Shown in pieces: positions 24,096 through 24,944 of a stretch of DNA of 64,000 nt (positions are counted from its first letter, which is position 1; the number at the start of each line of letters is the position of its first letter). This stretch comes from a virus. Its lineage: Duplodnaviria; Heunggongvirae; Uroviricota; Caudoviricetes. Made by a program: the position numbers and the translations under genes. Under the pieces are notes generated by a model. It ran no database searches. It was not told the DNA's origin and saw only the letters and a list, made by a program, of their open reading frames with translations. The DNA lies in IMG/VR virus record IMGVR_UViG_3300012347_000364, positions 89,019-153,018 of that record; one strand, given 5' to 3'.

Positions 24096-24169
24096 ATAGA
24101 GTAACGCTAAATTAATTTAAACCGAAAGGAGGCTATCATGCGAACGTAGATTTTTTACGGAGGTATGAT

Positions 24170-24490
24170 ATGTCGAGAACATATAGAAGAAAGTCAGGCG
24201 ACCAAACCAATCTCAATTGGGCTACACATGAGTTCAAAAGATTGCCTGGTACCTGGCATTGGGAGCGAGTACCGTTAGATCCTCAATCCAAAGAGTATAA
24301 GGCCAGTGTTGCAAGATACTATTCAGATCGCCAGTACACATTCAAAGAACCAGGCCCGTCTTGGTTCCGTCGATTGTTTACAGAACGTCCGCAACGACGT
24401 CACGCAAAACGCGAACTGAATAAATATTTGTTGGATCCAGATTATGAGGTTATCCTCAACGAAAAGGATCCATTGGAATATTGGACTTAA
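24170..24490 (+). CDS. basic hypothetical protein
   Basis: GGAGG SD; MSRTYRRK... Confidence 0.7.
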   Translation: MSRTYRRKSGDQTNLNWATHEFKRLPGTWHWERVPLDPQSKEYKASVARYYSDRQYTFKEPGPSWFRRLFTERPQRRHAKRELNKYLLDPDYEVILNEKDPLEYWT

Positions 24491-24494
24491 AAAG

Positions 24495-24560
24495 AATTGT
24501 TGTAATCCCTTCAAAGCGAAGGACTTCTGGACGCGGGTTCGACTCCCGCCATCTCCACCA
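24495..24560 (+). ncRNA. ssrA: tmRNA acceptor piece (3' tRNA-like half) of a permuted two-piece tmRNA
   Basis: GGAC-GCGGG-TTCGACT-CCCGC-CATCTCC-ACCA (T-arm, acceptor 3' strand, encoded CCA ending at 24560); 5' boundary approximate. Confidence 0.9.
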
Positions 24561-24570
24561 AAAGAAAATT

Positions 24571-24759
24571 ATGAAATTATTTGCAAAAACTAGAGATAAC
24601 CAAATCGTAAAAGTTATTCGTGCTGGTAAAACCATTTACGGAGAACGAATGGTTTTAACTGAGATAGAAATGAACTCTATCAAAGTGTATCGGTTTGTTG
24701 GTCAACAGGATATGTATACAATGCTATGTGATGAACATGGGAATGAAGTTTTCTTTTGA
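24571..24759 (+). CDS. 62-aa ORF inside the tmRNA intervening segment
   Basis: ATG 24571 to TGA 24759 fills the spacer between CCA and the 5' GGGG; no SD, A-rich leader. Confidence 0.55.
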   Translation: MKLFAKTRDNQIVKVIRAGKTIYGERMVLTEIEMNSIKVYRFVGQQDMYTMLCDEHGNEVFF

Positions 24760-24760
24760 T

Positions 24761-24927
24761 GGGGATGCCATGGTTTCGACAGGGGTAGATAGTAGAGACG
24801 GCAACACGGTAGGCGATGACCGCAAATCAAGCAAATAAAGTAAACGCAAACGACTCAAAGTTCGCATTGGCAGCCTAAACGCTGACTAGGGTTTCGGTAG
24901 GTTTCCTCGTAACAGAATAACCTACCA
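24761..24927 (+). ncRNA. ssrA: tmRNA coding piece with proteolysis tag (A)NDSKFALAA
   Basis: 5' GGGGATG pairs with CATCTCC, including the G3.U70 Ala identity pair; GGTTTCGAC D-loop mimic; tag GCA AAC GAC TCA AAG TTC GCA TTG GCA GCC TAA at 24846-24878. Confidence 0.92.
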
Positions 24928-24944
24928 CTAATAAGGAGTAGAGA

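Follow-up and report, generated by a model that had tools for sequence, protein, structure and literature searches.

Two-piece tmRNA genes of the betaproteobacterial (beta) type (RF01850, RF04321; PMC11915505) are built in the order acceptor piece, intervening segment (IVS), coding piece, and have a G3.U70 pair, an encoded CCA and an ALAA-type tag. Phage-encoded examples are also known, such as that of Methylophilales phage Melnitz (PMC9004378), and a tRNA-Ala and a repeat element are reported from permuted-tmRNA IVSs in PMC11915505, a term search of which gave no protein gene in such an IVS. A search of the literature, incomplete for older work, likewise found no paper on protein genes in tmRNA spacers. 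The phage locus described here shares the gene order, the G3.U70 pair, the encoded CCA and the type of tag, but its IVS measures 200 nt, has a closing helix that occurs mainly in phages, and contains a protein gene.

Partial parallels are found in three other systems. The 23S IVS of Coxiella burnetii with its S23p ORF (PMC4990558) also places an ORF in a horizontally acquired, helix-closed segment that is cut from a stable-RNA precursor without religation. The present site is however in a phage tmRNA, it takes many unrelated small genes rather than one family, no member of the family found here matches Pfam and its model is all-beta; furthermore the Coxiella ORF is decaying and apparently untranslated in vivo (PMC4990558), whereas phage spacer cargo is under purifying selection. 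PeSL shuffling in T4-type phages (PMC2839356) similarly swaps small non-essential genes by way of conserved flanks, but the flanks here are halves of a single-copy functional RNA gene and not repeated promoter/stem-loop elements, and RNA processing takes the cargo out. In tmRNA, group I introns that contain homing endonuclease genes likewise nest a protein gene in a removed part of the transcript, but they are self-splicing, lie in the T-loop of one-piece genes and encode nucleases (PMC11915505), whereas the phage spacer has no ribozyme, religation or nuclease, no Rfam intron, Pfam or PHROG match, and a 62-aa product with an all-beta model.

The window analysed here, to which all coordinates refer, is a stretch of 64,000 nucleotides from a virus record that is complete at 222,825 bp (222.8 kb). 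With gp32, gp59 and gp33 near the tmRNA locus and 39 tRNA calls in the complete genome, one of them with a CUA anticodon, the record can be assigned to a large T4-like phage; a betaproteobacterial host is no more than a guess based on the tmRNA type. Since the complete genome has no match to SmpB, to the CCA-adding enzyme (PF01743) or to PF01844 HNH, processing and function of the tmRNA would rely on the host. A 106-aa ORF (24170..24490, + strand) ends 7 nt before the tmRNA, and as there is no sigma70 site between them the two are probably co-transcribed. Just 5' of this ORF, positions 24128-24150 comprise a strong Shine-Dalgarno (AAGGAGG) and, behind it, an ORF of three codons, M-R-T-amber.

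ARAGORN calls a permuted tmRNA with the tag ANDSKFALAA*, Rfam scores the locus at 147.3 bits with RF04321 and 137.6 bits with RF01850 (beta_tmRNA), and together they place it in the circularly permuted, two-piece beta class. The acceptor piece (24498..24560, + strand), whose first position is the start of the RF04321 match, consists of an H2 strand, the T-arm, the acceptor 3' strand (24550-24556), A73 (24557) and the encoded CCA (24558-24560). This 3' half lies 5' of the coding half, with the IVS between, and the coding piece (24761..24931, + strand; ARAGORN and Rfam) begins at G1 (24761) and contains a tag frame (24846-24878) that ends in an ALAA-type degron, and a 3' hairpin. Sequence and fold further give an alanine acceptor stem with G3.U70, a CCA end and a T-arm.

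The IVS (24561..24760, + strand), an exchangeable cassette, is exactly 200 nt long. The left arm of its closing helix (24559..24570, + strand) is formed by C75-A76 and a 10-nt A-rich leader that must act as the ribosome-binding region of the ORF, while the right arm (24747..24760, + strand) holds a TGAT that is conserved in the spacer alignment and encodes the last ORF codons and the stop. In the fold, CAAAAGAAAAUU (24559-24570) pairs with AGUUUUCUUUUG (24747-24758) to give 12 bp, 11 Watson-Crick and one G.U, and the helix is stacked on the acceptor stem via A73.U and one C.A mismatch. The first-pass annotation had proposed precisely such an inverted repeat extending the acceptor helix, with an ORF filling its loop, and both proposals stand: the ATG at 24571 directly follows the left arm and the TGA at 24757-24759 lies in the outermost part of the right arm. 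The spacer fold has a stability z of -3.1 and was equalled in 2 of 200 shuffles. An ORF filling the loop in this way arises by chance in 0.24% of cases when the interior is shuffled and in 0.55% when the start codon is kept.

In one respect that annotation needs correction, for neither the helix nor the TGA is specific to this ORF. Among 154 unique viral spacers the pairs A73.U, C75-G and A76-U form in 97-100%, C74 nearly always faces a mismatched A, and pairing at spacer positions +2 to +9 is found in 94-100% with many pair types; the search patterns had preset some of the arm positions, but in the two unselected scans they left the covarying inner ones free. As TGAT ends 144 of the 154 spacers whatever their cargo, non-coding ones included, the stop codon of the ORF is supplied by the scaffold. 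At locus L211 both arms of the present spacer enclose a loop of 85 nt that is non-coding and unrelated. In cellular genomes the right-arm motif is rare (10 genome stretches in GTDB as against at least 119 viral stretches). A 147-nt helix-closed spacer of the phage type with a small ORF occurs on an Alteromonadales MAG contig (L202), possibly a misbinned phage contig, and one of 103 nt in the cellular assembly of a Rhodocyclaceae MAG (L204).

The ORF (24571..24759, + strand; 62 codons, ATG to TGA) is a protein gene under purifying selection, encoding a small all-beta, probably SH3-like protein. Among 1.8 billion representative proteins it has the homologues P0002 (54%, E = 3e-12) and P0003 (42%, E = 5e-4), to which a profile search added P0009 (46% over 37 aa), the identities spanning 41-54%. 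Both P0002 and P0003 stand free, in arrays of tightly overlapping phage genes that have no tmRNA, and several neighbours of P0002 match PHROG families. P0009, the 5' end of which is cut by the contig start, stops at a TGA that belongs to a TGAT immediately 5' of the coding piece of a permuted tmRNA, and it is therefore a second, diverged family member in a tmRNA spacer. By the Nei-Gojobori method pS and pN are 0.76 and 0.35 against P0002 (p = 1e-5), 0.64 and 0.40 against P0003 (p = 0.007), and 0.73 and 0.37 against P0009 (p = 0.008; 31 codons, those of the helix arm excluded), where local alignments bias pN downward and the comparison with P0009 spans only 31-35 codons. The homologues thus conserve the frame with pS above pN, and codon usage resembles that of the genome and of phages in the ORF frame only. 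Furthermore, no indel or stop is present in any of 14 aligned near-identical copies, some of them from the same or very similar phages. These copies differ at 8 sites, 4 synonymous and 4 not (p = 0.056, by itself only suggestive), and with so few variable sites current selection inside the cassette is weakly shown. The coding status claimed in the first pass is upheld, both by the substitution rates across relatives and by the intact frame in all 14 copies, two of the points on which it was proposed to be judged.

The phage genome has no paralogue of the ORF, cultured phages include no carrier of the cassette, giving short T-arm matches only, and GTDB genomes have no copy of it. Two longer versions of the gene, one with a start at TTG 24481 (92 aa) and the other given by the 84-aa database entries P0001 and P0006, which extend the frame backwards into the tmRNA, were rejected, since P0002 begins at the Met equivalent to 24571 and the added codons fall within the tmRNA acceptor piece, which is variable among carriers.

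An AlphaFold (AF2) model of the protein is five-stranded (pLDDT 80, pTM 0.60). Its top structure matches with VIA are SH3/KOW domains, although weak ones (Z at most 4.5, with an rmsd of 2.1 for 46 residues), and its TM to SH3_3-containing models is 0.64-0.68; the model is read as a five-stranded, probably SH3-like barrel. PHROGs and Pfam gave no match for the ORF, nor Pfam for any family member, BFVD gave uncharacterised phage proteins only (best E = 0.02) and the best score for ESM Atlas features, 0.80, is at chance level. The model suggests a small binding module, and the protein would most likely be a non-essential accessory factor of the binding type that acts on a host or phage partner.

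Spacers of phage tmRNAs have a median length of about 76 nt but reach 237 nt, and, together with the tRNA and repeat element reported in PMC11915505, this makes the first-pass view of IVSs as short and non-coding only partly true. Their contents are unrelated to one another, comprising sequences that look like structured RNAs, a tRNA in L037 and L119, a tandem pair of cassettes in L087, and ORFs; the scaffold is common to about 150 spacers, and some 11 unrelated small-ORF families are among the cargo. That other phage permuted ssrA genes carry variable ORF cargo at the same spot, a point that the first pass proposed to check, is confirmed. Under a strict rule by which the ORF has to begin within ~16 nt, end in the final 15 nt and have at least 20 aa, applied to clusters from cargo-blind scans, an ORF fills 6 of 70 spacer clusters where 1.3 are expected (at most 5 in 1000 shuffles), and none on the reverse strand; the strict rule was used since a lenient one, allowing read-through into the tmRNA, has a high null of 6-7 of 52. 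Several of the other spacer ORF families also have pS far above pN between spacer-resident members.

Individual spacers deserve mention in their own right. The 237-nt spacer at L087:1177-1413 (+) consists of two helix-closed cassettes, both complete and arranged in tandem, with a short acceptor-stem remnant, GGTGGTGCTCCACCA, between them, the second unit being found alone in L259 as well, and this tandem suggests that cassettes may be captured by recombination at the acceptor stem. In L037 and L119 the whole 78-nt spacer resembles, when read by eye, a tRNA-Asn(GTT) gene. The spacer ORFs of L018, L032, L051, L149, L151 and relatives miss the scaffold TGA and run into the tmRNA coding piece, so that RNase P cleavage would make non-stop messages of them. 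The phage tmRNAs of L182/L193 and L186 have long tags (28 and 23 aa) beginning AKAS/AKSA, and in L182 an amber (CUA) tRNA call directly follows the tmRNA. At many loci (e.g. L007, L010, L020, L055, L114) the spacer is non-coding, measures 55-140 nt and belongs to a recurrent, conserved family, some of these spacers having T-arm-like hairpins; in 20 loci such spacers had no Rfam match beyond the tmRNA models, and they are possibly unrecognised small RNAs freed by tmRNA processing.

The present spacer is found at 97-100% identity in tmRNA genes whose mature parts are down to 55-75% identical, the coding pieces of the carriers being 55-91% identical to that of the present phage, although as carriers were chosen by the ORF its standing as the most conserved part is in part ascertainment. 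Eight different tag peptides occur among the tmRNA genes holding it, the carriers differ in gene neighbourhood, and the tmRNA locus (89-99%) is their sole DNA match above 80%. Their core proteins are mostly 31-55% identical (gp32 55%, gp33 37%, gp59 31-38%, GroES 39-48%). Since such near-identical copies occur under eight tags in phages this far apart, the spacer moves by recombination, and the copies have moved recently between distantly related phages. Conversely, tmRNA bodies 92-95% identical to that of the present phage hold unrelated spacers of 56-138 nt. Breakpoints are located in conserved tmRNA motifs and the flanking shared tracts vary in length. The cargo is flanked by single-copy tmRNA halves, and CCACCA-NAAG has one site on the + strand of the genome. 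The exchange is best read as homologous recombination in which the tRNA-like halves serve as arms. Mosaicism extends over the whole tmRNA gene and cargo-free modules of it are shuffled too, which together with the selection of carriers by their ORF means that a special drive of the spacer is not supported; no nuclease gene was found close by.

We consider it likely that a real gene here occupies an exchangeable, helix-closed slot, is translated co-transcriptionally and has its message ended by processing. The conserved helix of about 12 bp stacks on the acceptor stem and pairs the 5' leader (UGAU) with ACCA, and since the interior is discarded at maturation the slot would tolerate cargo, here the 62-aa gene of a small phage gene family, for which the helix arm supplies the final codons and the stop. 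The tRNA-like halves, being conserved, would serve as homology arms through which the cassette, often with flanking tmRNA, is exchanged among distant T4-like phages. The mean predicted unpaired probability of the start region is 0.68 in the nascent RNA, before the right arm exists, but only 0.29 once the precursor is complete and 0.32 after excision of the spacer, and translation would for this reason be mainly co-transcriptional, ribosomes loading on the nascent precursor during the ~180 nt of transcription that precede the right arm. The helix would subsequently close over the ribosome-binding region, and host RNase P and 3'-end processing would excise the spacer; as gene and tmRNA are on one transcript, processing must presumably end the message. 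The length of the closing helix would also be compatible with RNase III excision as in the 23S IVS. On reaching the stop codon a ribosome would cover G1 and delay folding of the acceptor stem, and the output would be a short, limited burst of protein per transcript. Of the earlier proposal that processing releases or destroys an mRNA, the ending of the message is thus retained as probable, but an activating release is not, given the lower accessibility of the start region after excision. The tie to tmRNA maturation would be a physical by-product of location and not a control circuit. That the coupling of expression to tmRNA maturation suggested in the first pass is purposeful is not supported, the nearest tmRNAs having no ORF, the stop coming from the scaffold and the homologues existing also as ordinary genes.

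A selected regulatory coupling, in which location controls the protein, is nevertheless the alternative that survives best, and we regard it as unlikely. A cut in the 21-position helix formed by acceptor stem and closing helix, with its one mismatch, might remove the stop and leave a message that is tagged and destroyed by tmRNA, so that protein would build up only if trans-translation or tRNA processing fails, as for ArfA (PMC3985003); alternatively, tmRNA maturation might be gated by translation. Such notions agree with the same geometry in the ~11 unrelated ORF families, which begin 10-14 nt inside the spacer and end within or close to the right arm, with the spacer residence of the diverged P0009, and with the association of SD-like left arms with ORF cargo (p = 0.011 in an unselected sample). 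The stop is however part of the TGAT that non-coding spacers share, and the cargo proteins, among them membrane peptides, basic peptides, coiled coils and a barrel, have nothing in common, in addition to the free-standing homologues and ORF-less closest tmRNAs already mentioned. The extended version, in which spacers are a dedicated platform for expression and exchange whose cargo is controlled by tmRNA processing, the helix hiding the ribosome-binding site and holding the stop and the cut yielding a non-stop message that tmRNA destroys, we hold to be unlikely; if true, it would amount to a sensor of the ArfA kind, the outputs of which are interchangeable and pass from one distant phage to another.

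It is quite unlikely that the gene, although real, is a captured and silent passenger that makes little or no protein now and spreads by hitchhiking with recombined tmRNA segments, its weak ribosome-binding site hidden by the helix. The leader has no real Shine-Dalgarno (AAAGAAAAUU), whereas many other spacer ORFs have GGA, the start region is paired in precursor and excised RNA alike, selection among the near-identical copies is weakly marked and the S23p ORF of the Coxiella 23S IVS (PMC4990558) offers a precedent, but not one of the 14 copies has a frameshift or stop, and purifying selection is seen between the two spacer-resident homologues and within other spacer families. Both this reading and regulatory coupling are ranked below co-transcriptional translation, as nothing was found to show that the competition of ribosome and folding is itself selected. 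A selfish homing element that drives its own spread into tmRNA genes by a nuclease would account for a near-identical cassette with shared flanking tracts of variable length in distant phages, but is highly improbable in view of a 62-aa protein without nuclease match, a complete genome in which PF01844 HNH has no match and the sole GIY-YIG domain is 35 kb away, and the shuffling of cargo-free modules as well. A chance ORF in an AT-rich structural spacer, even granted that the helix gives the TGA and that short spacers are sometimes filled by chance (null mean 1.3 of 70), is effectively ruled out by a fill probability of 0.2-0.6%, by pS far above pN and above all by the free-standing homologues.

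What the locus adds is one family with both free-standing and spacer-resident members, and evidence of a recent transfer between distant phages. It shows that protein genes under selection can reside in the portion of a phage housekeeping RNA precursor that is thrown away, and that a single RNA gene can offer its two halves as recombination arms by which small genes are swapped between phages at 31-55% core-protein identity. Annotation misses or mis-starts such genes, as the two 84-aa database entries illustrate. The layout furthermore offers a compact system in which co-transcriptional translation, folding and RNase P processing would be set against one another on one molecule.
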